Below are positions 2,648-49,194 of a stretch of DNA of 64,000 nucleotides, piece after piece. Each line of letters starts with the position of its first letter. Within the stretch, counting starts at the first letter, position 1. The notes beneath the pieces were generated by a model. The model saw only the letters and a list, made by a program, of their open reading frames with translations, did not search any database and had not been told where the DNA came from. Origin of the DNA: a virus; IMG/VR virus record IMGVR_UViG_3300045988_137032, positions 128,001 through 192,000 of that record. One strand, given 5' to 3'. The position numbers were made by a program, and so were the translations under genes.

Positions 2648-3229
2648 GTGAGCGTTTATAAACCAAATAATGATCACGAACTTAAGAAAGTCTTTATAGA
2701 AAATACCCCGATAATTAAGTTCGTTTCCCATGATGTATTTGAAGACAACGATTGGAAAGAATTCATGCAGCAATGCCCCGATAATTCGAATCAGTTCGAA
2801 TGGTGCATTTGGGCCGCTGGAATTTTCCGTTGCGATAATATCATGGATGATAAGTTTGACACATACGCGGCATACTGCGCATCCGTGATTCAAAGCATTG
2901 CAAAAGATTGTAATGTGGAGTGTTCTGACGATCGTATGATCGTCCTTGCATATGGTCTCGCAGCACGGACTTTCAATTTTGAAGCTGCAAAACTTGAAAA
3001 GTCCGATTATAATTTTGATGCAATGCTTAATGCATCTGATTACGAATGCACCGATGATATTGATTTCTTATCAATGTGGGAAATGCTTGTCATGACTATC
3101 CGATTCATTCGTGTTCTTGATCCGTCAAATGTCAAAGCACTGATCAAAGTCATGAAAAAGGTAAATTCCATTCGTGATAAGTATAATGAAGTATACACCC
3201 GGATGAGTAACATGACAGCTAATTATTAA
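2648..3229 (+). CDS. Hypothetical protein (Cys-array/rSAM operon)
   Basis: 193-aa ORF with a GTG start, co-oriented and tightly spaced within the operon. Confidence 0.6.
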   Translation: MSVYKPNNDHELKKVFIENTPIIKFVSHDVFEDNDWKEFMQQCPDNSNQFEWCIWAAGIFRCDNIMDDKFDTYAAYCASVIQSIAKDCNVECSDDRMIVLAYGLAARTFNFEAAKLEKSDYNFDAMLNASDYECTDDIDFLSMWEMLVMTIRFIRVLDPSNVKALIKVMKKVNSIRDKYNEVYTRMSNMTANY

Positions 3230-3254
3230 TATATTTTAGGGAGAGTGCACGTTT

Positions 3255-3554
3255 ATGAAAATTATTAGCATTACGACTCAAGAAAGCGAAGCCGTTGAGC
3301 GGGCTTATTATGAGTCGCAATCATATGAATCCATCGTTTCTATTCTCTGTAGAGAATTGAATGAAAACGCAAATCCTTTAACATCTGAGATGCTCCATCA
3401 TTATATCGACTTGTGCAAAACTGCAAAGATGCGTCTCAAATTGACGCAAGACAATGTAATTGGCAGATACGTCGACAAGTCGGAGTTTAATAATGCCCCG
3501 GTAACATTTGATTTTGAGCGCGAGGAGATGTTGGTATCAGATGAAAAAGCGTAA
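3255..3554 (+). CDS. Hypothetical small protein, translationally coupled to the radical SAM gene
   Basis: 99-aa ORF behind GGGAGAG. Its 3' end overlaps the rSAM start by 14 nt. Confidence 0.6.
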   Translation: MKIISITTQESEAVERAYYESQSYESIVSILCRELNENANPLTSEMLHHYIDLCKTAKMRLKLTQDNVIGRYVDKSEFNNAPVTFDFEREEMLVSDEKA

Positions 3555-4905
3555 TAAGCGTCTCTATGAAGAGTATACTGATATGGTCCAAAGGCTGTAT
3601 AAGAAAGACTTTGTTCTCAGCGGAGCATTATCAGCATTGAAAATTTGCAGATATGTGACTTTTCAGATTACGAATGCTTGCAATCTTCGGTGTTCTTATT
3701 GCTATGAGCATAATAAGAACTGTGGAGCCATGAGCCTTGATACAGCCAAGAAAGTCGTCGACTATATTCTTGACTTGTATGCTGACAACACATCTGATTT
3801 CATCTCTCAGCAAACAAAGGGTGTTGTTCTTGATTTTATCGGCGGAGAGCCTCTTCTGGAAGCTGAACTGATTGAGCATATTTGCGACTATTGGTTCGAG
3901 CAGTGCTATAAAAGAGACATTCCTCTCGGCCCGTTTACAAGAATCTCGTTTGCTACAAATGGTAAGGCTTGGTTTGAGCCTGCATCCATGCATTTATTTG
4001 AAAAATACCATGATATCATGTCGGTCACAGTATCTATTGATGGTGTTCAAGAACTTCATGATATGTACCGTGTTGACAGTAATGGCGTTGGAAGTTTTGA
4101 AATGGCTTGGCGAGCTTTTCAAGATGCAAAAGCTCGATATGGCTGGCTTAATTCCAAGATGACATTTGTTCCCGGATCAATCAAATATTTATACTCCAGT
4201 GTGAAAATGATGATTGATGAAGGGTGCACTTATATTCATGGTAATTGTGCATATGAGCCCATGTATACAAATGAAGATGGGAAAAACTTGTATAACGAGC
4301 TTAAGAGACTTGCCAATTATATCATAGATGAGCATCCGGATGTATTCTTTGCAATGTTTAATCCAGATGAATATGGTGAAGCAGTCGATTTAGTGCATGA
4401 TGATAACAACTACTGTGGTGGTACGGGAAATATGCTATCATTTGCTCCGGACGGCAAAGCATATCCATGTATCAGATACGCTCCCATTTCTATCGGAAAT
4501 GAGAAAGCAGCCAAAGTATGCTTTGGCGATGTCAATAATGGTGGACTATACGCAACCGAAGAACAACGCAAAATTAAGCGTGAGTTGGATGCTATCACCC
4601 TGACATCGCAATCTACAGACGAATGTATCAATTGCCCTGTATCCAAAGGATGTGGATGGTGCTCTGGATATAATTACGAAAAATATGGTACTGCAAATAA
4701 GAGATATACTGGAATTTGCAAAGCACACAAAGGCAATGTCCTTGCTGTGTACTATTATGTGAACACTCGGTATCTTAAACTTGGCGATACGGAACCGAAG
4801 AAGATTAAACTGCCTTATGATGAGGTAGTAGAAATTCTCGGTAAAGAAGAAGCTGACAATCTTTTCGCCCTTGAAAAGGAAGCTTTTTCTCACTACGAAA
4901 TGTAA
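3541..4905 (+). CDS. Radical SAM enzyme with SPASM domain (anSME/peptide-maturase-like)
   Basis: CNLRCSYC (CX3CX2C) and GGEPLL are present. The C-terminus has C-x12-G-x4-C, then CINCPVSKGCGWC, then a further Cys. I moved the start to ATG 3541 (M12 of track ORF 3508..4905). Confidence 0.85.
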   Translation: MKKRNKRLYEEYTDMVQRLYKKDFVLSGALSALKICRYVTFQITNACNLRCSYCYEHNKNCGAMSLDTAKKVVDYILDLYADNTSDFISQQTKGVVLDFIGGEPLLEAELIEHICDYWFEQCYKRDIPLGPFTRISFATNGKAWFEPASMHLFEKYHDIMSVTVSIDGVQELHDMYRVDSNGVGSFEMAWRAFQDAKARYGWLNSKMTFVPGSIKYLYSSVKMMIDEGCTYIHGNCAYEPMYTNEDGKNLYNELKRLANYIIDEHPDVFFAMFNPDEYGEAVDLVHDDNNYCGGTGNMLSFAPDGKAYPCIRYAPISIGNEKAAKVCFGDVNNGGLYATEEQRKIKRELDAITLTSQSTDECINCPVSKGCGWCSGYNYEKYGTANKRYTGICKAHKGNVLAVYYYVNTRYLKLGDTEPKKIKLPYDEVVEILGKEEADNLFALEKEAFSHYEM

Positions 4906-6565: not shown

Positions 6566-7648
6566 ATGGATTGGATGAAATTACAACTTTCTATTTATGA
6601 AAGTTATTCCAATGGTGATATTACAAAAGACGCATGCGATAGTCTTATCAATTCCATCTATAATAAGATTGGTGATAGTATCGTTGAAGAAGCAGAAAAT
6701 GCTGAAAACGAATTCATCAATACTTCACTTAACGTGCTTACTGAAAATACTCATGATAGCAATTTACTTATGGAAGCAGCTAATACGTTCGCTGATAAAG
6801 TAAAAGCATTATGGGAAAAATTTAAAGCGTGGCTGAAAGCTTTAATTAATAGGCTATTTGGCAGAAAAGAAAAACCTTCCGGGAAAGTAAATGGTCCGAA
6901 AGGTTTAATGAATGCTTTAAATACGCTGAAATCGAAAGTGAAATCACTGAAAGGTGCTACTGGAGCTAAGGTAGCAGTAGCTATCGGTGGTATTGCAGTT
7001 TCTATCGCTGGTGTAAAGAAAGTTCTCAGCAACAAAGGCGATACAGAAGAAGTAGATGCTAATGCTGTAGATAAATCTTGTAAAGATATCATGGATGGTT
7101 GCCAATCAGTATCTGAAGATCAATCCAAAAAAAAAGGTACTGTGGATAAAGAGAATCCTGTATCAAAAGTTATCAAAGCACTCCGTGATACTGCATCATT
7201 AATTGGAAGTGTTGTGAGTGGATTGATCCATCGCAAGGCTTCCAATCAAACTGAAAATAAAGCGTCAAATAATCCAGTTCTTAGTAAAGAATTTATGGAC
7301 GCAATCAATAAGAAAGATAATCTTGCTGTAAAGATTATGATTAAGGATGCTATTGTTTTTGATGCCACAGACACAAAAGGGATTCGTAGTGTTCCTCCTA
7401 TGCTTTCAGAAGCTAAGAAGAGTACTCCTGAAATTTTTGACAACCAAGAAAAATTCGATGATATGACAGATGATAAGTCCAAATGGACAATGGATTATAT
7501 GAATTTGCATCTTGTGAAATTGATGAGTGGTAACTTCACGGAAGAGAATATTCATTATCTTGAAAAAGTTGCTAAAATAGCGATGAATAATAATTCTAAG
7601 AAAGATACTACATCAAAATCTTCTGATAATGATAAAGAAAGGGGATAG
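6566..7648 (+). CDS. CTS-like family protein (long N-module, type A)
   Basis: Starts MDWMKLQLSIYESYSNGDIT and has the helix ALWEKFKAWLKALINRL plus a hydrophobic segment AVAIGGIAVSIAGV. Contains an in-frame A9 tract at 7127..7135. Confidence 0.7.
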   Translation: MDWMKLQLSIYESYSNGDITKDACDSLINSIYNKIGDSIVEEAENAENEFINTSLNVLTENTHDSNLLMEAANTFADKVKALWEKFKAWLKALINRLFGRKEKPSGKVNGPKGLMNALNTLKSKVKSLKGATGAKVAVAIGGIAVSIAGVKKVLSNKGDTEEVDANAVDKSCKDIMDGCQSVSEDQSKKKGTVDKENPVSKVIKALRDTASLIGSVVSGLIHRKASNQTENKASNNPVLSKEFMDAINKKDNLAVKIMIKDAIVFDATDTKGIRSVPPMLSEAKKSTPEIFDNQEKFDDMTDDKSKWTMDYMNLHLVKLMSGNFTEENIHYLEKVAKIAMNNNSKKDTTSKSSDNDKERG

Positions 7649-18533: not shown

Positions 18534-18578
18534 GAAAAAAAAAATAAGGGATACCTAACTGGATGTTAGGTCCCTTAT
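18534..18578 (-). terminator. Intrinsic terminator (minus strand)
   Basis: Hairpin TAAGGGATACCTAAC/GTTAGGTCCCTTA, followed on the minus strand by a run of at least 10 T. Confidence 0.7.
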
Positions 18579-21023: not shown

Positions 21024-21314
21024 ATGAAAACCGGATATATGATAACTCGTTATATGACAAAGAAAAAAAATGGAACGAGTCATATTATAACACCGAAAAA
21101 CTTCGTAATGCTGGCTGGAAAAACACCAGGTGTCTTTATGAATGAATCAGATGGATGTAATGCATTTGAAGAAATCACAAATAAAGTACTTGATATGCAT
21201 GATAAGTTCGAAGAAGATATGAGTGAAAGAACTTCTCATATGCGAGTATTCCATGATAAAGAAAATGGATTTGACTACGTATATGTGTTAGAAACCATTT
21301 TCTTACAAGAATAA
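21024..21314 (+). CDS. Hypothetical protein
   Basis: 96 aa behind an AGGAGAAAG RBS. Contains an in-frame A8 tract. Confidence 0.55.
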   Translation: MKTGYMITRYMTKKKNGTSHIITPKNFVMLAGKTPGVFMNESDGCNAFEEITNKVLDMHDKFEEDMSERTSHMRVFHDKENGFDYVYVLETIFLQE

Positions 21315-22259: not shown

Positions 22260-22535
22260 AGAAATACCCTCACCCTTTCAAATGGATAATTGTATGATAA
22301 ATATTAAGAATGTGTTTTTTTTGGTAATATTAGCAATTCAACGTTTTTATATCTCGTTACATCGCTCCCTAGTTATAGAAATTACAGCTATAATCAGGGA
22401 GCGAAGCCAGATTTTCATTCATCGGAGACGGCCGATGTGCTGCACCGATGTATTTAAAATCAACAAATGGTGGTGTATACATTGTAGGATTTTATATAAA
22501 TTAACATTGCACTAGATCACAAATATACTAAAAAT

Positions 22536-22569
22536 ACCTAGTATGATAATCATTGCATTATCATACTAG
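22536..22569. repeat. Perfect 14-bp-stem hairpin
   Basis: CCTAGTATGATAAT cattgc ATTATCATACTAGG. Confidence 0.8.
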
Positions 22570-22642
22570 GTAAAAGAACCATCTGTTTGACATAAAATGA
22601 GCATAAATGTGACGTAAAATGCAGTATTTTGATAGAAAAATA

Positions 22643-22701
22643 CTGGAATATACATCTATAACAAATATACTTAGTATATTTGTTATAGATGTATATTCCA
22701 G
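22643..22701. repeat. 59-nt perfect palindrome (28-bp arms, 3-nt loop) upstream of the fibre-tip cassette
   Basis: CTGGAATATACATCTATAACAAATATAC tta GTATATTTGTTATAGATGTATATTCCAG. Confidence 0.9.
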
Positions 22702-22766
22702 CCAAATGGAAAAATATGTCGAAAGATTGGTTGATAACGATTTTTGAAAATGAGGTGAAAATCGTT

Positions 22767-23186
22767 ATGAAAGCCGAATATAAGGCAGAGAATATCAATG
22801 CGACTGAACTTTTGCTAAGGTATGCTGAACCAGAAAAATTCATCCTCCCAAAAGAACACACGAATGATTTTGGAGATGTAGGGCATGATTCAAAATCAAT
22901 GCAAGTATTTGAATCATATGAGCTGGAAGGAGCTCCTGATTTGTATGGACATATAATCCATATAAATGGTCAATACGGTAGCATGTATCATTATGCATCA
23001 TCTGAGTTATTCTTAGGATGGCCATCGCATACCGATACTACATCTATAAAAACGCCACCCATATATTATAGAGCTCATTCAGATAAAATCGATGAGCTTG
23101 GTTGGACACCGTGGAGAAGACTTGTTTACGAAGACGAAGTTGTAGAAATCGTAAATTCAGTCTTAGCGGAAAAAGGATTGATTTAA
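22767..23186 (+). CDS. Fibre knob-domain-like protein
   Basis: Track ORF 22689..23186. I moved the start to M27, behind GAGGTGA. The segment ...PPIYYRAHSDKIDELGWTPWRRL resembles pyocin-knob-type fibre tips, from memory only. Confidence 0.5.
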   Translation: MKAEYKAENINATELLLRYAEPEKFILPKEHTNDFGDVGHDSKSMQVFESYELEGAPDLYGHIIHINGQYGSMYHYASSELFLGWPSHTDTTSIKTPPIYYRAHSDKIDELGWTPWRRLVYEDEVVEIVNSVLAEKGLI

Positions 23187-23197
23187 GGAGAATGAAT

Positions 23198-23580
23198 ATG
23201 GCTGAAAAAATTTTACTCACAAAAAAAACAATGAAGCCATCAGCCTACAACCGATAGCAATTCACGACATTGGTGTTGATTATATCCGATTCACCAACGG
23301 AGTTCAAATATGCTGGGGAACTAAAAGATTTAACGGTGATGAAATTGATTTAAATCAAGACGTATCAAAAGCATTCATTAAATTTCCAGTAGCTTTCAAT
23401 AGTGTACCTAATATTATACTCGGGCGTCAATGTGGATATCGTTATACTACAAACAACGATGATGCTGGACTATATGCAGGGTATATAGAACCAGACCATT
23501 TTGTAGTCTGTGGCTCTACTAAAATGGACCGTTCTGAAATCGCAGTGTGTATGTATGTTGCTTTTGGTAGATGGAAATAA
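23198..23580 (+). CDS. Fibre-tip (gp53-like C-terminal domain) paralogue 1, interrupted at an A8 tract
   Basis: ATG 23198 lies behind AAGGAG. The zero frame stops at 23255..23257. The -1 frame runs from the A8 tract (23221..23228) to the stop at 23578..23580 and encodes ...YIRFTNGVQICWG...FPVAFNSVPNIIL...YVAFGRWK. Confidence 0.6.
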
Positions 23581-23591
23581 AGGAGACTATT

Positions 23592-23965
23592 ATGAGCGAA
23601 GTTTTCGTTGAAAAAAAAAAACGAATGAACTTATTCAGCTAATCAGCGTTGCTGATGCTGGAGACGGTTATATTCGTTTTTCTAATGGATTACAAATATG
23701 CCATGCCATTATAAACGATGATACCCCAAATGAAACTATCGGAAATTTCAATGGTGGTACTGTTACCTTTGCTATGCCGTTTATCAATGAGCCATCAATA
23801 ACATTATCACGATGGCTAAATGACCTATATTACAGTAATGAATATAGAAAAGAAATTCATTATTCATCACTTAGTCGTAAATCATTTATAGTTGTTGGCG
23901 TTAATGAAGCTGATGAAGCTAAAGTTATTAACTTTTCCTATATCGCAATAGGAAAATGGAAATGA
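23592..23965 (+). CDS. Fibre-tip paralogue 2, interrupted at an A11 tract
   Basis: ATG 23592 lies behind AGGAG. The zero frame stops at 23640..23642. The -1 frame after the A11 tract (23611..23621) encodes ...GYIRFSNGLQICHA...VTFAMPFINEP...YIAIGKWK. The track lists only its tail, 23774..23965. Confidence 0.6.
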
Positions 23966-23973
23966 GGATTTTT

Positions 23974-24303
23974 ATGTATATTAATTTGAAAAAAAAAAAC
24001 GGAGAGAATATTTCTGTAGTAGCTGTCGAAGATATTGCTAATAATTATATTAGATTTTCTAACGGTCTACAGATTGTATATTCAAATGGAATGATCACGG
24101 AATCAGGAGATACTATAACATTTCCTGTAGACTTTACCACAAATCCAGTTATAGTATTTAATCGTGATGGAGGATGTGATGGACTTTCCAACATCCATGG
24201 AGCTTTCGTTAACGGGCATGAACATAAAATATTCATTGATGATCCATCAAGTGCTATATTTCCGATATACTTCAACTATATTGCCATCGGTTGGTGGAAA
24301 TAA
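23974..24303 (+). CDS. Fibre-tip paralogue 3, intact
   Basis: MYINLKKKNGE...NYIRFSNGLQIVYS...ITFPVDFTTNPVIV...YIAIGWWK. The A11 tract at 23989..23999 is in frame. I placed the start at M7 of track ORF 23956..24303, behind GAGGA. Confidence 0.7.
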   Translation: MYINLKKKNGENISVVAVEDIANNYIRFSNGLQIVYSNGMITESGDTITFPVDFTTNPVIVFNRDGGCDGLSNIHGAFVNGHEHKIFIDDPSSAIFPIYFNYIAIGWWK

Positions 24304-24372
24304 AAATCCAGCATAAGCTAGTCTTGCATTTCTTAGCCTATACTGGATATAAAGGAAAATTAAAGCGTATAA

Positions 24373-24403
24373 GACCGAGTGTAGTTCTCAGCTACACTCG
24401 GTC
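24373..24403. terminator. Hairpin between convergent genes, possible terminator
   Basis: GACCGAGTGTAG ... CTACACTCGGTC. Confidence 0.45.
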
Positions 24404-24442
24404 GCTTTAACCCTAAATTACTGTAGATTGTATAGTATCTAT

Positions 24443-24999: not shown

Positions 25000-27183
25000 A
25001 TGATCGAATTCGATAAAGAAAAGATCTTCAATGGTAGCCCTGTGAAAGCTCTTCGGAATCAGTTCGAAGAATTAAAGCAGGACTATACGAAGGCTAATGC
25101 AATTCGGTATTCTCAGGTATATAGTGAGATGACTCTCACTGATATTCTGGATGGGTCTGAATATATCTTTACGGAACCTATGCGTGGTTGTGCTTTCTAT
25201 AAAGATCTTATGGAAAGCTGTGTAATTCCTTACGATCGTATCGAAGAAGAGTACGATAAGGTGAATCATTATCTGAAAGAAAATCAGAAAAAGATGAGCC
25301 CCACGATGCTTACTGAGTATACTGAACTTCTGAACCTCATGGAAACGAAGTTTACGAATACTTGCTATACTCGTATGATGTATGAGACGTTCCATGATAA
25401 TACTCATGCAAATGATCGTTTTTATGATTGCCACTTCAATCGTGAAGATGGCGTCATTGAGGAATCTACTGCAAATCCCATTTATAAAGCAAAGGGTCTG
25501 CGTCTGATTGATGCAATTACCCTTGGAGTTAAAAAGCCTGAAAAGAATGCTTCTTCCCTGTATAAGTACATGGTGGAAGAAGCTTTAGTTGAGAATCCTA
25601 CTACTCCGGAAGAGTATCAGCTGAATGCATACACAACCAATGTGGTTCGTCGTATGATGAAGGATTCCTACATCTCTGAAGCAGTCAATAATCTTCAGAA
25701 TATGAATCTTCGTACTCTGCTGAAGGGTCTTGCTAAGGAAGACCAGAGTGAATTTCTTGAGTCTGTTGTCATTGAGAAGGGTGATCCGGATGACATCGTC
25801 TATTCCACTACTGAGAATGCGGTGAATATGATGTTTGATGATGAGGATTCTCATTGTATCTTTGCAGAGAGTGATGCTCAGGAGAAGATGCATCGTCTTA
25901 GTTGTGAAAAAGCTATCATCGATATGAATGAAAGCTTCCTTTCTATGGATGCTATCAATGGTGTATCTGCTGGGTCTACCGCAAACTGGGATCCTATTGT
26001 GGAGAAGATTTGCTTTGAGTCTTCTTCCATCACAAAGATTCCTACTGATATTTCTGAGCAGGTTAAGATGCTTCGTGAAAAGTCTGAAGAGATTGCCAAC
26101 GAATATCAGCTTACCTGTGAAGCATATTACACTGCTGATGGTAGCCCTTCTAAGGTTGTGGCAATGGCCGTCAACGAGTATATTCCCAAGAAAGCATCCA
26201 AGCTGAAGAAGCAGAAGGCTGAGGATCTCGATGACGATGAAGATGAGGACGATTCCGAAGATGATACTACGGATGATGATTCATCTGATAGTGGTCATGC
26301 TGAGACCGATGCTGAGCATAACGCAAAACTTCAGTCTAAGAAGGATGCTCAGACAGCCAAGTATGCTGCCATGGATGACAGCGATATAAATTTTAACGAA
26401 GCGTCAGAAGACGAAGAGGAAGAAGACGATAAGAAGAATCCTAAGTCTGGCAAAGCCACTTCTGACGCAAAAGCATCTCCTGCTAAAAAGGATGATGGGG
26501 AAGAAGCCGAAGACGATACTCAGGATGATGAATCTTCTGATGATGAGGACGAATCTGATTCCAAGGAGCCTGTAAAGGATACTGTGGATAAAGAAGAGCC
26601 TAAAGCAAAAGAAGATGAAAAGAAACCTGATGAGAAGCCTAAGGAAGTAGAAAAACCTCAGAAGCGTTCTCTTGCTCAGAGGATTCAGAATAAGGCACTG
26701 GATACCAATGCTAAAGTTCATAAGAAGCTCGCTGAGATTCATCGTAAGAATATCGACCGAAAGAACGCTGCAAAAGCTGTAGGTAAAATTCCTGCTGGTG
26801 CTGGCGGTATGTTGAAAAAACAAATTGCTGAGTGGGAAGAAATGGATGATGATAAGCGTAAAGAGTATATCATCAAACCTGGTACTCGTAAGAAGTACTT
26901 CCGTGCTCTTAAGTTTGCTATTGAGCATTACATCGCTTTTGCCATTAATCCTCTGATGAATATCGTTCTTCTTATTTGCCAGAAGTTCTCTCATGATAAG
27001 GATATTCGTATTCGTAACGAATTGATTCATGAGCTTAAGACAGAGCAGAAAGTCATTGACGCTAAGATTAGCGATATGCAAAGTAATCCGAAGATGAATA
27101 ACGAACGCTATAAGCTGATGCGCTTTAAAGATAAGCTGGATGCTGAAATCGTTCGTGTCTCTGCAAATTCCAAGTATGTCTAA
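25000..27183 (+). CDS. Large hypothetical protein with a long acidic low-complexity region (head-module context)
   Basis: 727 aa. The central ~200 aa are D/E/S/K-rich (DDDEDEDDSEDD...). Confidence 0.6.
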   Translation: MIEFDKEKIFNGSPVKALRNQFEELKQDYTKANAIRYSQVYSEMTLTDILDGSEYIFTEPMRGCAFYKDLMESCVIPYDRIEEEYDKVNHYLKENQKKMSPTMLTEYTELLNLMETKFTNTCYTRMMYETFHDNTHANDRFYDCHFNREDGVIEESTANPIYKAKGLRLIDAITLGVKKPEKNASSLYKYMVEEALVENPTTPEEYQLNAYTTNVVRRMMKDSYISEAVNNLQNMNLRTLLKGLAKEDQSEFLESVVIEKGDPDDIVYSTTENAVNMMFDDEDSHCIFAESDAQEKMHRLSCEKAIIDMNESFLSMDAINGVSAGSTANWDPIVEKICFESSSITKIPTDISEQVKMLREKSEEIANEYQLTCEAYYTADGSPSKVVAMAVNEYIPKKASKLKKQKAEDLDDDEDEDDSEDDTTDDDSSDSGHAETDAEHNAKLQSKKDAQTAKYAAMDDSDINFNEASEDEEEEDDKKNPKSGKATSDAKASPAKKDDGEEAEDDTQDDESSDDEDESDSKEPVKDTVDKEEPKAKEDEKKPDEKPKEVEKPQKRSLAQRIQNKALDTNAKVHKKLAEIHRKNIDRKNAAKAVGKIPAGAGGMLKKQIAEWEEMDDDKRKEYIIKPGTRKKYFRALKFAIEHYIAFAINPLMNIVLLICQKFSHDKDIRIRNELIHELKTEQKVIDAKISDMQSNPKMNNERYKLMRFKDKLDAEIVRVSANSKYV

Positions 27184-28798: not shown

Positions 28799-30541
28799 AT
28801 GAATAATCATCTGAGTTTTCTGACCGAATCTTCCAAGGGCTTCCAGGAGACCCCTACCATTGGTAGCTTCTCTCTGGGTGCACAGAAGAATGAGTTTGAT
28901 ACCGTTTTTGAGCAGGCATGTAATGAGCTGATGGCTCAGGGTATTGATGCTAAGATCAATATCAATGACCTGGTTCAGAATAAGCCCATCTACGAGGCTT
29001 ATCGTGATGCCCTGCTTTCTAACCTGAAGGATGACTGTGAGAATTTCCAGGATGTTGCAGAGGGCACCCGTTATGCTACTCTGTACGAGCAGACCGAGGC
29101 TATGCTGGATAACTGCCGTGCAGACCTGCTGCAGGAGTCTACCCGCGTTGGCCAGCTGCTGCCCATTAAGGCAGTTGACTTCCCCGTTCTGATCAAGCAG
29201 AACCTGGCTCTGGCTTCCAAGGATATCATCCAGACTGAGGTCACCAAGACCCCCGTCATCAAGAAGCACATCGAGCGTCGTTGGGTCGTTGATCCCAAGA
29301 CTGGTAAGCGTTGGGAGTATCCCCAGTGCTTCTTCAAGGATGAGTTCACTGATATCTTCAACGCTGGTAAGGGTCTGCCGATTAAGGATACCGATGTTGA
29401 TATTACCGCTGGTAAGTGCTTCAACTACAATATCCCGAAGAACCTGACCGATACCACTGATTATACCCGTGAGCACATCACCTTCGATCTGAAGATCGTG
29501 TCCGCTAAGGTCACTACCGATGATGGTGATAAGGACTTCCCGCTGGAGATGCGCATCAACATGTCCGATAACACCTGGCTGGGTGGTCAGATTAAGGACG
29601 AGAAGACTGGTGAGATCATCGATGTGATCACTGGTACTGTCGACTTCCTGGCCAACAACGTCTGCCTGTCTTCTGCTGCTGGTAAGGTCAAGAGCGTTAA
29701 GTTCGGCGGCTACCTGAGCAACGAACTTAACGAGCGTACTGTCACTTGGGATCGCACCCGTGAAGAGTACGAATGGAAGATCGAGGACGGCTTCCGTGTG
29801 GATATTCCGTACTCTCTGGAGGAGCTGGAGGATGCAAAGGCTCTGATGGATATGGATCTGTACAAGCTGACCTACAACGATCTGTCTGACATTCTGGTTC
29901 AGATGGAGGATAGCCAGATCCTGAAGTATCTGGATGACCAGTACACCAAGTTCAATGGCATTGAGCTGGATCCGCTGGGCTTCAACCCCTTCATTCGTAC
30001 CCAGACCTTCGACTGCGATTCTAAGACTCAGACCGTCGCCCTGCAGTCCGAGTACATCCAGAAGATGCTGAAGTTCTACATCGATCGTTTCGTTATCGAC
30101 ATCTGCGATAGCGCTAAGATCGACGATATGACCTTCGTCTGCTATGGTAACCCCCGTTACATCTCCCTGCTTGATCCTGAGGTCAACTGGGTGGTGCGTT
30201 CCGGTGACTCCGTTGGCGGCGTGAAGGCTAACTACAGCTATGGTATCATGAACGCTGCTGGCATGAAGATCCAGGTTGTCTCTACCTACAAGTACAACAA
30301 CAAGGACGAGCGTAAGCTGCGCTTCATCCCCTATCCTCTGCATGACAACCAGTTCACCTTCAAGCACTACAAGTACACCACTCACATTCTGACTGCTCAG
30401 AACAGTGGTTACCGTGCTGCTAACCAGCCTGGTGGCTCCATGACCTACCTGATGGGTACTACCCGTAACACCACCTGCACCATTCAGGGTATTCAGGGTA
30501 GCATGAGCCTGGAGAACACCAACTTCATTCTGGAGAAGTAA
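28799..30541 (+). CDS. Putative major capsid protein
   Basis: 580 aa with very strong codon bias (high-expression style). It follows the scaffold-like gene and has its own strong terminator. No sequence motif was recognised. Confidence 0.5.
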   Translation: MNNHLSFLTESSKGFQETPTIGSFSLGAQKNEFDTVFEQACNELMAQGIDAKININDLVQNKPIYEAYRDALLSNLKDDCENFQDVAEGTRYATLYEQTEAMLDNCRADLLQESTRVGQLLPIKAVDFPVLIKQNLALASKDIIQTEVTKTPVIKKHIERRWVVDPKTGKRWEYPQCFFKDEFTDIFNAGKGLPIKDTDVDITAGKCFNYNIPKNLTDTTDYTREHITFDLKIVSAKVTTDDGDKDFPLEMRINMSDNTWLGGQIKDEKTGEIIDVITGTVDFLANNVCLSSAAGKVKSVKFGGYLSNELNERTVTWDRTREEYEWKIEDGFRVDIPYSLEELEDAKALMDMDLYKLTYNDLSDILVQMEDSQILKYLDDQYTKFNGIELDPLGFNPFIRTQTFDCDSKTQTVALQSEYIQKMLKFYIDRFVIDICDSAKIDDMTFVCYGNPRYISLLDPEVNWVVRSGDSVGGVKANYSYGIMNAAGMKIQVVSTYKYNNKDERKLRFIPYPLHDNQFTFKHYKYTTHILTAQNSGYRAANQPGGSMTYLMGTTRNTTCTIQGIQGSMSLENTNFILEK

Positions 30542-35024: not shown

Positions 35025-37217
35025 TTGGGTAATCGCATTAAGCGAATCGGAAATAAATACTATGACACTGGTACTTCGAATAAAAGTTTCCTCCAAGTAG
35101 CAAAAGACTTAAAAAGTCTTGGTATCCATAATTACTACTTTATGCTGGAAATTTATGATTATAGTCTGGTGAATATTGATCCTTATGCAGAGAATCTGAC
35201 AAGAGATCAAATCTCCAGAATTATGACAGAGTGTACCAGAAACCCATGGTATTATCTTCGAGAAATTTGTAGGATTCCTGACCAGGGCGGTGTTGGTATT
35301 CCATTTAAAGCAAATCGTGGTAATATCGCACAGACATGGTTAACCTTGCATGGTATCGATTCATGGCTATGCTTGCCTCGTCAGCAAGGTAAAACTATCT
35401 CATTCCTTTGCTTACTAGCATGGGCATATTCTTTCGGTACCAACAACTCTACCTTTATTTTCGTAAATAAGGATAGTGGAAATGCTAAGGAAAACTTACA
35501 ACGTCTGAAAGATATTATTGACTGCTTACCGGAATTCTTACGCTTTGACCAGATTATGGAAGAAGACGAAAATGGTAAGGTGAAATTGGTTAAGGCTGCA
35601 CGTAATGCTACTAGCATGAAGCATCCTATTACAAAAAACCGTATCATCATCAAACCAAAAGCAACTTCCTATGAGTCTGCATTGTCACTGGCTCGTGGTC
35701 TTACTTCTCCTATTCTACATTTTGACGAACCTGAGTTTACTCCGTATATCAAAACGATTATCGAGAACTCAGTATCAACCTTTGAAACTGCATCGAGGAA
35801 CGCTAAGAAAAATGGTGCTATGTATTGCCGGGCCTTCTCTTGTACCCCAGGTGACTTGGATACCTCCATGGGACAAGAAGCACAAGAAGTTCTATCGCAT
35901 ACTACGAAGTGGTCTGAGCACATGTATGATATGCGATACGATTCACTTAACGATGACAAGAATGAGCTTCTTCAGTACGTCAAAAATAACGGTGGAAACG
36001 GAATCGTATATATCGAATACTCTTATAAGCAACTTGGCCTCACGGACGAGTGGCTTCGGAATATGTACAATAAGATTCAAAACCCCGTCGTTGTAAAACG
36101 TGAGATTTTGCTTCAAAGAATTCGTGGTAGTAGTGATTCTCCGTTCGATCAGGAAGATATTGAATATATGGCATCTATGGTGAAACCTATCGTTGATGAG
36201 TTGTATCTGTGTGACCATTTCAGATTCGATATCTATAAGAAGCTTGAGAGACTTACTCCATACTTAGTAAGTATCGACTGCTCTACTGGTACCAACGGAG
36301 ACTCAAATGCTATTACAATTATCAACCCGTATACGGTAAGACCTGATGCTGAATTCAAGTGTCCGTATATTGGTGAGACACAATTCGAAAAACTCATCAT
36401 TGAGTTAGTCCAGGAGCATCTTCCTAGAGCATGTATCATCATAGAGAGAAACTCTGTTGGTGATGGCATTATCGATCATCTTCTGAATTCTCCTATTAGA
36501 TCAAATCTTTATTTTGATAAGAATAAAGACTTGGTTGAATCGAATCTTGCCGAGCAGTCGAATGTCGTCAGTATGCTGAAGCGTCAAGGAGATCAAAAGA
36601 AGTTCTATGGCGTTTATACCGACAATAAGAGTCGTGAAGATATGATGGCTATTCTGTTTAGACGAGTGGCTGAATTCAAAGACGACTTTGTTACTAAGAA
36701 TATCACCGATGATATTGCCCATCTTGTACGGTTTAAGTCAGGAAAGGTAGCTGCACAAATTGGTTTCCATGATGACTCCATTATGTCTTACCTCATCGGT
36801 ATGTATGTATGGTACCATGGTAACAACTTAAGTATGTGGGGCATCGTGAAGGGAGCTAAGGAGATTGAGAACCAAAATCAAGGTCTCCATAGATCCGTTG
36901 AAGATATTGAGAATATGGATATTCTTCCTGCTGATACAATAGAAGCTATGAAGAGGCAGGAGAAAGTCCGTAAGGAAAATGACTATGAGAAGATTATGAG
37001 AGAAGCTCTCATTAAAGCTCAGAGAGAATCCCTTGAACTCCATAGGAAGGGTCTTGTTGAAAATGAGACTCTTGATAAATCCCAGGATGTACAACTGGAA
37101 GAAATCTATGGTAATAATTCCATTGATATGAGTTTCTTCGATGAGATGAACGGTATGGGTTCTGATAATGGGTCTTCTTCTAATCTTTCAAATTTTGATT
37201 TCTTAAATGGCTTTTAA
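35025..37217 (+). CDS. terL: Terminase large subunit
   Basis: Walker A-like LPRQQGKT, Walker B-like ILHFDEPE, and a C-terminal nuclease-like VSIDCSTGTNGDSNAITI. TTG start 7 nt after GGAGGTGA. Confidence 0.85.
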   Translation: MGNRIKRIGNKYYDTGTSNKSFLQVAKDLKSLGIHNYYFMLEIYDYSLVNIDPYAENLTRDQISRIMTECTRNPWYYLREICRIPDQGGVGIPFKANRGNIAQTWLTLHGIDSWLCLPRQQGKTISFLCLLAWAYSFGTNNSTFIFVNKDSGNAKENLQRLKDIIDCLPEFLRFDQIMEEDENGKVKLVKAARNATSMKHPITKNRIIIKPKATSYESALSLARGLTSPILHFDEPEFTPYIKTIIENSVSTFETASRNAKKNGAMYCRAFSCTPGDLDTSMGQEAQEVLSHTTKWSEHMYDMRYDSLNDDKNELLQYVKNNGGNGIVYIEYSYKQLGLTDEWLRNMYNKIQNPVVVKREILLQRIRGSSDSPFDQEDIEYMASMVKPIVDELYLCDHFRFDIYKKLERLTPYLVSIDCSTGTNGDSNAITIINPYTVRPDAEFKCPYIGETQFEKLIIELVQEHLPRACIIIERNSVGDGIIDHLLNSPIRSNLYFDKNKDLVESNLAEQSNVVSMLKRQGDQKKFYGVYTDNKSREDMMAILFRRVAEFKDDFVTKNITDDIAHLVRFKSGKVAAQIGFHDDSIMSYLIGMYVWYHGNNLSMWGIVKGAKEIENQNQGLHRSVEDIENMDILPADTIEAMKRQEKVRKENDYEKIMREALIKAQRESLELHRKGLVENETLDKSQDVQLEEIYGNNSIDMSFFDEMNGMGSDNGSSSNLSNFDFLNGF

Positions 37218-46699: not shown

Positions 46700-47365
46700 T
46701 CAGCTATCCTTCTTCACCATTGGAATATAGAAGTTGAACGACTGAGATGTAAATAAACCTATATCGCATCTGAATGATATTAGGTTGAGTTCATTAGAAT
46801 ATTGTCGGGCGCTATACTCGACAATATCTGTATTTTTTTCTGTGACAAGAGGGAAAGCTTCCTTAGTCAGAATCACAGGAACATCATCAACATCTTCAGG
46901 TACAAACTGGAAGTAGTTATTTTCTACGAAGATGTCATTGATTTGTGCTTCTGTCAAATTAAGCTTATGCCAATCATGAAGAATACCATTCAAATCGTAA
47001 TAATACTGAGTACGAGCAATTACATTACTCCTCTCAGAATTAAGACGGACTTGAACTGCTTTTTTTCGATATTCTTCCAAGTCAATATTCTTTTCAAGAT
47101 CTGCTTTGGAAGGACATACGTATTTCTTAAACTCACGAGCATTCGGAATATGGATCATTGATCCAAAATCATCGAATAGATAAAATAACGCTTTCGTTGT
47201 TTTATCATCGAGCTTTATCATGTACGGATAATTTATATCAAGACTGATGACATCACCAGTTTTCATGATGTAAATATCATTCATTACTCTTACGAGTTTT
47301 GTAAATACTTTCCCGATGAGAGTTCTCTCATCATTATCCGGGAGAATTACTTTAGTCGTTGCCAT
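46700..47365 (-). CDS. Hypothetical protein, translationally coupled to the polymerase gene
   Basis: 221 aa. Its ATG overlaps the polymerase stop (TAATG). Confidence 0.6.
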   Translation of the reverse strand: MATTKVILPDNDERTLIGKVFTKLVRVMNDIYIMKTGDVISLDINYPYMIKLDDKTTKALFYLFDDFGSMIHIPNAREFKKYVCPSKADLEKNIDLEEYRKKAVQVRLNSERSNVIARTQYYYDLNGILHDWHKLNLTEAQINDIFVENNYFQFVPEDVDDVPVILTKEAFPLVTEKNTDIVEYSARQYSNELNLISFRCDIGLFTSQSFNFYIPMVKKDS

Positions 47366-49194
47366 TATTTACCGAGCTCCTCCTTCATACGAGCATATAC
47401 GTCAGCTACGGATGGCATATTCATCCATTTCGTTCCAAACGAAGTATAGTTACCTGTCTGGAAGTTATCTATGAATTCCTTACTGCCGTCGCGCTCGCCT
47501 TCTTCAACGAACTTCTTCCATGTAACTCCTTCAAGGGGAATAGGTCCATCGTAAATATCGTACTGGCCAAGATCCATCTGCATCTTAAAAATAAGAGTAG
47601 AAGGATCGATATTCATAGCACGAATACTGGATGGATAGAAAGAAGACATATCGAAGTCAATTGCATTCAGGAAGATATTATTGGAAGTTTGCCCATAGAT
47701 TTTGATACCTACTTTGTCATTATAAGTAGGATCAGCAACCAGTGCACCTTCGAAGCTATCATCTTCCTCAATGATGTTACCGTCTTCATCGTACTTCGGT
47801 TCAGACCGACTTGTATCAAAGAGTACGTTGATATTATTGCCGGGAACAAGTCCACGACTCAAATAGTTCACATACTGCACGTTACGAAGAACGACTGTCT
47901 GTTTGAAGACCTTAGAATACGGAGTTGCGTTCTTATAAGAAGAAACGTAAAGTGTATCAAGGTCAGAAGTTCTGCGTTCAATACCATACTGAAGCAAAAC
48001 GTCTTTGATGTTGTAAGTAACAAACATCTCAAAGTTTGTATAGGGAAGAGTTTTAATGTTACCATCTTCACTATAATCAAGCTTTGTATCTTTCAATTCT
48101 TTCTGAGCAATGTAATTCAGTTTGTAGTTACGTAACTCAGCACCGCCTTTACGATTGGCTGCATACAACTCCATCTGGTCGATAAAGTTTGTATACGATG
48201 AAAGAATCATGATATCATTCTTATTCTTGATCTCAAAGTTTCTAGTATCAGGTTTAAACTGACACACTTTCGATGGGAAATCAGGATGACACATAACATC
48301 AGTAGGATTAAGTCCAAGTCGGATCAATCTTTCAATGATATACGGCATATCGAAGCTGATATTCCAAATCGTAATGAAATCAAGTTCCAAAGAATTGATT
48401 AACTGGAATAACTGTACCAGCATCTTCTTTTCATCAGTAAAGAAATACTGCTTGTATTCCAAATCAGAACCATAAAACTCATCATAAGTTTCATGCATCT
48501 TCTGATTAAATTCTTCTTGGTGGTGCATCATGTAACGCTGCTGATCATGCATACTATCATACATCTTAGCACGCTCAGGATCGTCGCCTTCATACTGACG
48601 ATTCACCAGGAGGAAAGTATAAACGACTTTATCCCATCCATCAATTAAAGTAACTGCATTGATGGGACAGTCTTGTGCAGATGGCATACCGGGGGTTTCA
48701 ATACCATCAACCTCGATATCCATGAATCCTTTATGAAGTTTCTTCACACGGTCATTATCATAGTTCTGAAGCCATCTTGCACGATAAACGGAAATAGGAT
48801 CGTAATCAGATCCAAAAGTATACGGATAAGCAAAAAGCTTTTTATTCTCTCCGTAATTACCAGTCTGGAGATTGCTCTTATAAATCTGAAGCCATTGATC
48901 TCCAGCTTCCAAAGCAATTGCTCTCTGTACATCTTTATACGGAACCACCTTGCAATAGAGGTGGTCAATCGGAGAGTAGTTCTTACAGTAATCATGATCC
49001 CGGTATTCCTCTTTCTCAAAGTAAATAGGAATAACGGGATTCTTCTGTGTAATCAGGTATTTTTTACCTGTATCAAGATTCCTCCAAATCACATAGAGGT
49101 AATCATCATTCTGACCTTTCTTACGGTCAGGTTTTACATATTGAATATCGACGAGCATTGCATTTTCTTTACTAGGTTTAGGTCCATTCAGCAT
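47365..49194 (-). CDS. Family B DNA polymerase, N-terminal part (exonuclease domain plus motif A only)
   Basis: Exo I FMDIEVDG, Exo II WNISFDMPYI, Exo III YNIKDVLL and Pol motif A DFDMSSFYPSS. The ORF ends about 85 aa later, without motifs B or C. Confidence 0.8.
   Translation of the reverse strand: MLNGPKPSKENAMLVDIQYVKPDRKKGQNDDYLYVIWRNLDTGKKYLITQKNPVIPIYFEKEEYRDHDYCKNYSPIDHLYCKVVPYKDVQRAIALEAGDQWLQIYKSNLQTGNYGENKKLFAYPYTFGSDYDPISVYRARWLQNYDNDRVKKLHKGFMDIEVDGIETPGMPSAQDCPINAVTLIDGWDKVVYTFLLVNRQYEGDDPERAKMYDSMHDQQRYMMHHQEEFNQKMHETYDEFYGSDLEYKQYFFTDEKKMLVQLFQLINSLELDFITIWNISFDMPYIIERLIRLGLNPTDVMCHPDFPSKVCQFKPDTRNFEIKNKNDIMILSSYTNFIDQMELYAANRKGGAELRNYKLNYIAQKELKDTKLDYSEDGNIKTLPYTNFEMFVTYNIKDVLLQYGIERRTSDLDTLYVSSYKNATPYSKVFKQTVVLRNVQYVNYLSRGLVPGNNINVLFDTSRSEPKYDEDGNIIEEDDSFEGALVADPTYNDKVGIKIYGQTSNNIFLNAIDFDMSSFYPSSIRAMNIDPSTLIFKMQMDLGQYDIYDGPIPLEGVTWKKFVEEGERDGSKEFIDNFQTGNYTSFGTKWMNMPSVADVYARMKEELGK

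Follow-up and report, generated by a model that had tools for sequence, protein, structure and literature searches.

Poly-A tracts of variable length in the tandem fibre-tip genes of a human-gut jumbo phage as probable contingency switches

The 64,000-nucleotide stretch of viral DNA analysed here (positions 128,001 to 192,000 of IMG/VR virus record IMGVR_UViG_3300045988_137032; hereafter "the window") comes from an uncultivated human-gut jumbo phage of about 260 kb and contains three tandem paralogous genes, at positions 23198-24303, for small proteins resembling fibre tips. All three carry a run of adenosines (poly-A tract) at codons 8-10. Here we show that the length of these tracts differs between closely related genomes, and that the gene bodies behind them are kept open. 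We consider it probable, at roughly 60%, that the tracts are heritable contingency tracts that change length by slipped-strand mispairing and act as the primary switch of the tip genes; this explanation is favoured because it directly accounts for the tract polymorphism between genomes. An initial annotation of the window, made from the sequence alone, had read the tracts as functional switches on alternative tips rather than as sequencing errors or dead genes, and this reading is upheld by the length variation, the recurrence of out-of-frame lengths and the intact, selected gene bodies.

Results

Tracts and reading frames in the window

The three tip genes and their tracts are as follows.

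23198..23580, plus strand: tip gene 1, with a 116-codon body in the -1 frame that ends at TAA 23578-23580
23221..23228, plus strand: A8 tract of gene 1; in-frame lengths A9 or A12
23592..23965, plus strand: tip gene 2, with a 113-codon body in the -1 frame that ends at TGA 23963-23965
23611..23621, plus strand: A11 tract of gene 2, A10 in the other assembly of the same run; in-frame lengths A9 or A12
23974..24303, plus strand: tip gene 3, 109 amino acids (aa), in frame in this assembly
23989..23999, plus strand: A11 tract of gene 3, A10 in the other assembly of the same run; in-frame lengths A8 or A11

Gene 1 starts at ATG 23198 behind the Shine-Dalgarno (SD) sequence AAGGAG and reaches a TAG at 23255-23257 after 19 codons. 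Gene 2 starts at ATG 23592, also behind AAGGAG, and reaches a TAA at 23640-23642 after 16 codons, and gene 3 starts at ATG 23974 (SD GAGGA) and is open to 24303 in this assembly. With one A added or two removed, gene 1 would encode a protein of 127 aa (MAEKILLTKKNNEAISLQ...) ending at the stop 23578-23580, and gene 2 one of 124 aa (MSEVFVEKKKTNELIQ...) ending at the stop 23963-23965. Rereading the sequence confirmed all coordinates and premature stops of the initial annotation, as well as its claim that the tract encodes a K-K(-K) stretch at the same early codons of the three paralogues: their proteins share 32-33% identity in the alignment, and the lysine stretch occupies the same columns.

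A reading-frame scan found no start codon in the body frame of gene 1 until its last 20 codons, and the first in-frame start in the body of gene 2 yields merely a 63-aa C-terminal fragment (23774-23965). Alternative initiation was therefore rejected for genes 1 and 2 in the window, and both are OFF by standard decoding. A TTG abutting the gene 2 tract is in the body frame at A10 but lies about 22 nt from the SD sequence, and was not scored as ON. Recoding of the stop codons was likewise rejected as a rescue, since the bodies lie in another frame and readthrough of TAG or TAA would miss them.

Long A runs are common in the window, where A8 windows occur 25 times against 6.5 expected (about fourfold over-represented; 0 of 100 shuffles reached 25). 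The tracts of genes 2 and 3 are the sole A11 runs in the 64 kb and also the longest runs. The only other long coding run, an A9 at 7127, is in frame, further long runs are intergenic, and no other ORF (open reading frame) of the window is broken at a homopolymer. The tip genes have a GC content of 34%, compared with 39% for the window, and use AAA for 88% of their lysine codons, compared with only 39% in the long ORFs of the window. An in-frame A8 run is also present at 21063-21070, in codons 12-14 of a 96-aa ORF (21024-21314; ...TKKKNGTSH...) adjoining the dihydrofolate reductase gene; it resembles the KKKNG of gene 3 and is absent from the corresponding region of a related strain, strain K.

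The window sequence is that of the Logan assembly of run ERR636414 of project PRJEB7369 (loci L011/L023), and the ENA assembly of the same run (L021/L022) differs from it, over 22,186 bp compared, solely by A10 instead of A11 at gene 2 and at gene 3. No difference between the two is seen at the intergenic A10 tracts (18535 and 30742) or at any A8/T8 run, and the A8 of gene 1 is the same in all three assemblies of this strain. As a result of the disagreement, the frames given above for genes 2 and 3 are uncertain by one base. With A10 at these two tracts, none of the three genes is in frame with its ATG, and gene 2 needs a shift of +1 or -2, not -1. The earlier statement that gene 3 is in frame and that gene 2 needs a -1 shift thus holds for the window assembly and fails for the other one. 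Either both lengths are present in comparable amounts in the reads, or stutter blurs the call. Contig ends often lie near the tracts; we rejected them as proof of read heterogeneity, because nearby single-nucleotide polymorphisms between strains could equally break the assembly graph.

Tract lengths in related genomes

A profile search yielded 44 homologues, to which cluster members added 19. In addition, 26 related metagenome loci (L numbers) were retrieved, and tract lengths were tabulated relative to the SD-ATG frame. In most relatives a second cassette lies just upstream, with two more tract-bearing genes that we call A1 and A2; the window strain (W) has no second cassette. In the following list, + denotes in frame (ON) and – denotes out of frame (OFF).

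Strain W (window, L011): A1 and A2 not applicable; gene 1 A8–; gene 2 A11–; gene 3 A11+
Strain H (L001-L005, five contigs): A1 A10+; A2 A10–; gene 1 A9+; gene 2 A10–; gene 3 A10–
Strain H, gene 3 in L012 (same gene body): A8+
Strain K (L009/L010): A1 A10+; A2 A12–; gene 1 A10–; gene 2 A10–; gene 3 A11+
Strain S (L013): A1 and A2 not covered; gene 1 A9+; gene 2 A9+; gene 3 A12–
Strain M (L014/L015): A1 A11–; A2 A11+; gene 1 A9+; gene 2 A10–; gene 3 A11+
Strain M, gene 2 in other contigs: A9+ in L016/L020; A11– in L017
Strain M' (L025/L026; 99.3% identical to M): A1 A8–; A2 A10–; gene 1 A10–; gene 2 A12+; gene 3 A9–
Strain L18 (L018/L019): A1 A10–; A2 A9–; gene 1 A7–; gene 2 A9+; gene 3 A11+

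The initial annotation had named the comparison of related genomes as a check. Far from being invariant, the tract at the homologous site measures between A7 and A12 across the 27 distinct genes of the 26 loci. Among orthologues of gene 1 it measures A7 (L018/19), A9 (L001-8, L013 and L014-17) or A10 (L009/10 and L025/26), and in gene 3 of the relatives we found A8 (L012), A9 (L025/26), A10 (L001-5), A11 and A12 (L013). For each tip gene, both ON and OFF states occur among the strains.

Between genomes that are 99.3-100% identical, essentially all indels fall at these tracts. With 0 substitutions in 1.9 kb, loci L016 and L017 have A9 and A11 at gene 2; L014 and L016 come from the same biosample and have A10 and A9 at gene 2, with 2 substitutions in 4.9 kb; and L001 and L012 have A10 and A8 at gene 3. 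Between L025 and L014 (99.3% identity), 6 of 6 indels are in poly-A runs, the five tip tracts accounting for five of these, and the ON/OFF patterns differ for the most part. The tip tracts are by far the fastest-changing characters of the genomes compared. At the same time, tract lengths, including out-of-frame ones, recur across independent samples and assemblers: they are shared by the five contigs of strain H and agree between L025 and L026, between L009 and L010, and between L018 and L019. This recurrence of OFF lengths in independent samples excludes random miscalls as a general explanation.

Selection on the gene bodies and conservation of the tract as DNA

The body is open in each of the 27 distinct genes, over 58-140 codons (100-116 in genes 1-3), and none has a second lesion. 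In deep comparisons the pairwise ratio of nonsynonymous to synonymous substitution rates (dN/dS) is 0.1-0.5. It is 0.35 (dS 0.37) for gene 2 of strains H and K, which is OFF at A10 in both. Full-length proteins (126-128 aa) are encoded by gene 1 orthologues that share 65-83% identity, and gene 2 has an in-frame homologue, P0001, with 93% identity. Among the closest strains most changes are nonsynonymous in each of the three genes, also in the in-frame gene 3 (5 versus 1 synonymous), which looks like diversifying selection on the tips rather than decay.

The tract itself is conserved as DNA and not as protein, as judged from three features of the sequences. Firstly, the tract is still present in those lineages in which the leader has a different reading frame (MKKFCSQK(K)NGETIG, MKFSLKKKT). 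Secondly, the long ORFs of the window encode only a minority of their lysines by AAA. Thirdly, strain K has, elsewhere in its genome, an array of four paralogues of the same family without the tract (...TLANGNT...), so that the protein itself can do without the tract. This array lies at 3375-5437 of L024, about 30 kb from the switchable cassettes of strain K, and its genes encode proteins of 149, 106-113, 127-138 and 138 aa separated by spacers of about 150 nt. Presumably it is a constitutive tip set; no member of such a tract-free array is present within the 64-kb window.

In L001, L009, L013, L014 and L018, the leader, the tract, the 20-55 nt that open the body and the final ~40 nt of each gene (...INFSYIAIGKWK) are nearly identical DNA, even in genes whose centres are unrelated in type. 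This arrangement suggests that recombination between the conserved arms swaps the central, putatively receptor-binding parts.

Fold of the tip proteins

The assignment of these proteins as fibre tips in the initial annotation is backed by matches at the level of profile, sequence and fold. In PHROG 2712, a tail-fibre profile of 700 positions, the last ~100 residues match gene 1 (E-value 3.7e-11), gene 2 (1.3e-10) and gene 3 (1e-4), and a PDB search with a profile of the three proteins matched the F2-pyocin side fibre at its C-terminus (3e-4). The AlphaFold2 (AF2) model of gene 3 is an all-beta domain with a predicted local distance difference test score (pLDDT) of 85.5. Its best Foldseek matches are 6ct8, 6cl6, 4mtm, 6cl5 and 6cxb (query TM-score, TMq, 0.58-0.67; probability 1.00), that is, the foot of the R2/R1 pyocin fibres and gp53 of phage AP22, followed by H-type lectins including Helix pomatia agglutinin. 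As a fold assignment, the prediction that the tip proteins are free-standing lectin-like fibre-tip domains is well supported. With the foot of the R and F pyocin fibres and AP22 gp53 (PDB 6ct8, 6cl6, 25ve and 4mtm) they share not only the fold but also the framework Y-I-R-F-x-N/D-G-x-Q-I ... Y-I-A-I-G-x-W-K. In the pyocins and AP22, however, the domain forms the C-terminus of a long fibre polypeptide, whereas here it is a separate small protein with an N-terminal extension of about 25 residues.

The tip cassette and its genomic context

The tip genes are part of a cassette composed of a 5' palindrome element, a first gene, the three tips, with gaps of 8-11 nt between genes, and a 3' element. 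An operon consisting of the first gene and the three tips is the best explanation of this layout. Apart from the tips, its components are the following.

22611..22745, plus strand: conserved 5' element, with a perfect 29+29-nt palindrome at 22643-22701 that has a 1-nt centre (inverted repeat I1, 100% complementary)
22767..23186, plus strand: first cassette gene, 139 aa (MKAEYK...GWTPWRRLVYEDE...EKGLI), SD GAGGTG before the ATG
24304..24430, plus strand: conserved 3' element of ~125 nt with two hairpins, the second of which, 24373-24403, is terminator-like (inverted repeat I6)

The 5' palindrome precedes every tip cassette in the relatives (for example at ~3495-3555 and ~2020-2080 of L001, and in L009 and L018). 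Its second-cassette copy contains three compensatory double changes and remains a perfect palindrome, which suggests a selected hairpin or cruciform, or a binding site for a dimeric protein. The 3' element follows each cassette in the relatives (3207-3330 and 5099-5220 of L001; L009, L013 and L018), with a mean column identity of 86% over six cassette ends and compensatory changes in both stems of the second-cassette copy; it has no Rfam match. Homologues of the first cassette gene head every cassette in the relatives, and only three close homologues were found. No match to its protein was obtained in Pfam, PHROG, NCBIfam or by sequence in the PDB, also when a 10-sequence profile was used, and its AF2 model is unusable (pLDDT 35).

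Several other inverted repeats are present near the cassette. The 14-nt repeat at 22731-22771 (93% complementary) holds the ATG of the first cassette gene in its 3' arm and may form a hairpin for translational control. Two strong repeats, at 22535-22572 (16 nt, perfect) and 22362-22404 (17 nt, 88%), lie between the cassette and a divergent gene of 275 aa, and the former scores as a minus-strand terminator. Just 3' of the cassette, a 727-aa protein with a long acidic and lysine-rich low-complexity middle is encoded at 25000-27183 in all relatives; it has no family match.

Human-gut metagenomes contain identical or related contigs with lengths of 215-268 kb. The strength of the SD sites suggests a host of the Firmicutes type. 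The window also encodes dihydrofolate reductase (DHFR), a radical S-adenosylmethionine (radical-SAM) enzyme and the following proteins.

28799-30541: major head protein
35025-37217: large terminase
47365-49194, minus strand: DNA polymerase

Neither DNA searches (near and distant) nor protein searches of the phage collection, using the cassette and a neighbouring 929-aa protein, gave a match. Scans of IMG/VR with gene 1, the first cassette gene and a DNA pattern identified no relative, a JGI metagenome scan with the DNA pattern gave no match, and neither Rfam at gathering threshold over the whole window nor a tRNA scan returned anything.

Discussion

Contingency tracts as the favoured explanation

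The tip genes combine a homopolymer within the 5' part of the reading frame, length polymorphism with both ON and OFF states, and downstream coding sequences that are kept by selection, as expected of contingency loci. Under the explanation that we favour, slipped-strand mispairing during replication by a phage that encodes its own DNA polymerase would add or remove A residues, presumably at a high rate within the population, and each tip gene would flip heritably and reversibly between an in-frame and an out-of-frame state. An OFF gene would give only a peptide of 16-21 residues, and the phage population would thereby be a mixture of genomes expressing different combinations of tips. Provided that the tip proteins are on the virion, as their homologues lead us to infer, switching would alter adsorption or host range. 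The OFF state is probably leaky, and the ON state incomplete, through slippage of RNA polymerase on A9-A12. Of the three mechanisms put forward in the initial annotation, slipped-strand mispairing is thus the favoured one and RNA polymerase slippage is retained as the probable leak, but a dedicated -1 ribosomal frameshift fits least well, because OFF alleles need both +1 and -1 shifts.

A number of observations weigh against this explanation. Regarding the proteins, the Pfam families Gp53-like_C (PF21882) and H_lectin (PF09458) match with 14-17 bits, under their gathering scores of 24-25, and it is homology only that points to a virion location and to receptor binding of the tips. Regarding the tract lengths, the share of ON observations among the tip genes, 15 of 36, cannot be distinguished from the 1/3 that an irrelevant frame would give; it fits frequent unbiased switching and equally well a frame-insensitive expression via slippage at the RNA level. 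The five samples of strain H have identical tract lengths, so that consensus lengths can be stable. Within run ERR636414, the evidence consists of two assemblers that disagree, and stutter in the polymerase chain reaction (PCR) or in sequencing could give the same result. Finally, gene 1 is OFF with short tracts both here (A8) and in L018/19 (A7), with 15 nonsynonymous versus 2 synonymous differences between the two, and it may be decaying in this lineage.

A rheostat at the RNA level

The most serious alternative, though one to which we give clearly less credence, is that the DNA length is largely neutral. Slippage of RNA polymerase, possibly together with sliding of the ribosome on AAA, would then mix frames from any A9-A12 template, and every tip would be made at a fixed low-to-moderate level whatever its genomic frame. 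Besides the ON fraction of about one third, this possibility could explain why gene 2 has mostly A10, out of the SD-ATG frame, in many diverged variants and yet is under purifying selection, as in the comparison of strains H and K. Furthermore, transcriptional slippage is established at the A9 of Thermus dnaX (PMC1088944) and the A11 of Citrobacter tssM1 (PMC4256274), and genes 2 and 3 (A11 or A10) have the run of at least about 9 A or T in the sense strand that is expected of a programmed slippage site. On the other hand, gene 1 has only A8 here, and A7 in L018/19; Baranov et al. reported that many genomes select against slippage-prone A/T runs at about nine nucleotides, so that efficient slippage on the shorter runs of gene 1 is uncertain. 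In addition, known sites of this type hold a fixed genomic length across relatives, with an out-of-frame layout, whereas the present tracts vary from A7 to A12 and in-frame alleles are frequent. Slippage of this kind is also compatible with switching at the DNA level.

A related and rather speculative idea is that the tracts act mainly at the RNA level, so that the genomic length does not turn tips on or off but sets a graded ratio among several of them. Tips further down the operon might also be expressed less when an OFF gene terminates early. If true, such an RNA-level dial would be a frame-agnostic control of stoichiometry for a multi-tip fibre, and would explain the conservation of gene 2 despite its being mostly out of frame.

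Decay, artefact and programmed frameshifting

The remaining alternatives to contingency tracts are improbable. Genes 1 and 2 could be decaying pseudogenes in a redundant array in which gene 3 alone is functional, given the short, out-of-frame gene 1 tract in the window strain and its closest relative, the nonsynonymous excess between these two, and the absence of an alternative in-frame start in either body. This is doubtful, since all 27 bodies are open without a second lesion, other strains have in-frame orthologues of both genes, dN/dS is 0.2-0.5 in deep comparisons, and the in-frame gene 3 has the same nonsynonymous excess, which points to diversifying selection on the tips.

We regard it as still less probable that the true tracts are in frame in all three genes and that the frameshifts are homopolymer miscalls or assembly artefacts. 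It is true that the two A11 tracts are precisely where the two assemblies of ERR636414 differ, by one base each, and that the coverage of some related contigs is very low (1.4x for L006 and 2.3x for L017). Nevertheless, the same out-of-frame lengths were obtained from independent samples and assemblers, length differences of 2-3 nt occur (A8/A10, A9/A11 and A8/A11), and the A8 of gene 1 is identical in the three assemblies of the strain. Moreover, the A10 runs at 18535 and 30742 and the A9 at 7127, which serve as controls, are consistently called, and the tip genes are the only ORFs of the window that are broken at a homopolymer.

Least probable of all is dedicated programmed -1 ribosomal frameshifting in genes 1 and 2: the slippery heptamer A_AAA_AAA is present and a stable hairpin directly follows the gene 2 tract (-21 kcal/mol, z -3.5; weaker after gene 3, z -2.25), but there is no structure after gene 1 (z 0.08), the OFF alleles of relatives need +1 as often as -1 (gene 2 A10, gene 1 A10, A2 A12), in-frame alleles are common, and the gene 2 hairpin overlaps the sequence coding for the conserved YIRF motif, so that its conservation is confounded.

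Annotation and significance

The tracts also affect how the locus is annotated. Gene callers split, truncate or re-start the tip genes and assemblers disagree at the tracts, and the annotation is inconsistent across sources. The N-termini of homologues differ exactly at the lysine run (EKKT, EKKKT, TKKN). Some homologues are called as MKKKT..., starting at the TTG that abuts the tract because the ATG frame is broken, and others as 63-aa fragments. In NCBI record P0050, a 949-bp contig, gene 2 is translated with TGA as Trp, which joins out-of-frame flanks; we rejected this reading as an annotation artefact. At 640-751 of L006, a low-coverage Hadza contig, gene 1 continues, directly behind the shared AAGGAGATTATAATGAG, into an unrelated XseB-like ORF, probably through chimeric assembly.

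If our explanation is true, a gut phage hedges its recognition of hosts with up to five independently switching tip genes, three of them in this strain, and these switchable tips work alongside a presumably constitutive set of the same family found in a relative. It would also extend homopolymer switching of receptor-binding genes past Campylobacter phages, to poly-A and to the gut virome.

Comparison with known systems

As far as this can be tested, the tip tracts appear to work like known homopolymer contingency systems. The closest likeness is to the Fletchervirus phages of Campylobacter, whose receptor-binding genes contain hypermutable tracts of 7-11 G according to Sorensen et al. (2021, Cell Rep 35:109214), as cited in PMC10877375 and bioRxiv 10.1101/2025.10.21.683753. 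In both cases homopolymer runs lie inside phage receptor-binding genes or putative ones, and in Fletchervirus, by these accounts, length changes create subpopulations with different receptor-binding proteins. The present system differs from it in being based on poly-A instead of poly-G, in the fixed position of the tract 8-10 codons from the start, and in consisting of short free-standing tip genes (109-127 aa) in a tandem array. It also differs in belonging to an uncultivated ~260-kb human-gut phage known from sequence, and in that A runs add the possibility of slippage by RNA polymerase.

In phage T2, the A9 run of agt undergoes reversible +/-1 frameshifts at about 7e-4 per genome, with a reversion ~1000-fold faster than point mutation, and such repeats are under-represented in the tail-fibre genes of coliphages (Gomez, Barrick and Waters, bioRxiv 10.1101/2025.10.21.683753). 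The agt gene is a DNA-modification gene, whereas the tracts described here cluster in genes for fibre tips and can be longer, reaching A12. A further difference from these precedents is that the genome of a relative, strain K, has a tract-free array as well as tract-bearing genes.

The A9 of Thermus dnaX and the A11 of Citrobacter rodentium tssM1 (PMC1088944, PMC4256274) are similar in base and run length, and there too an A added to the mRNA restores an out-of-frame body. Those genes, however, have a fixed genomic length and two functional products, whereas the tip genes have a variable length, common in-frame alleles and an OFF product of 16-21 residues. Lastly, the invertible segments of Mu Gin and P1 Cin and the diversity-generating retroelements have an analogous outcome, namely alternative or diversified tips in one population, reached by a different mechanism: the sole large inverted repeat here is a hairpin with a 1-nt loop and not a pair of inversion sites.

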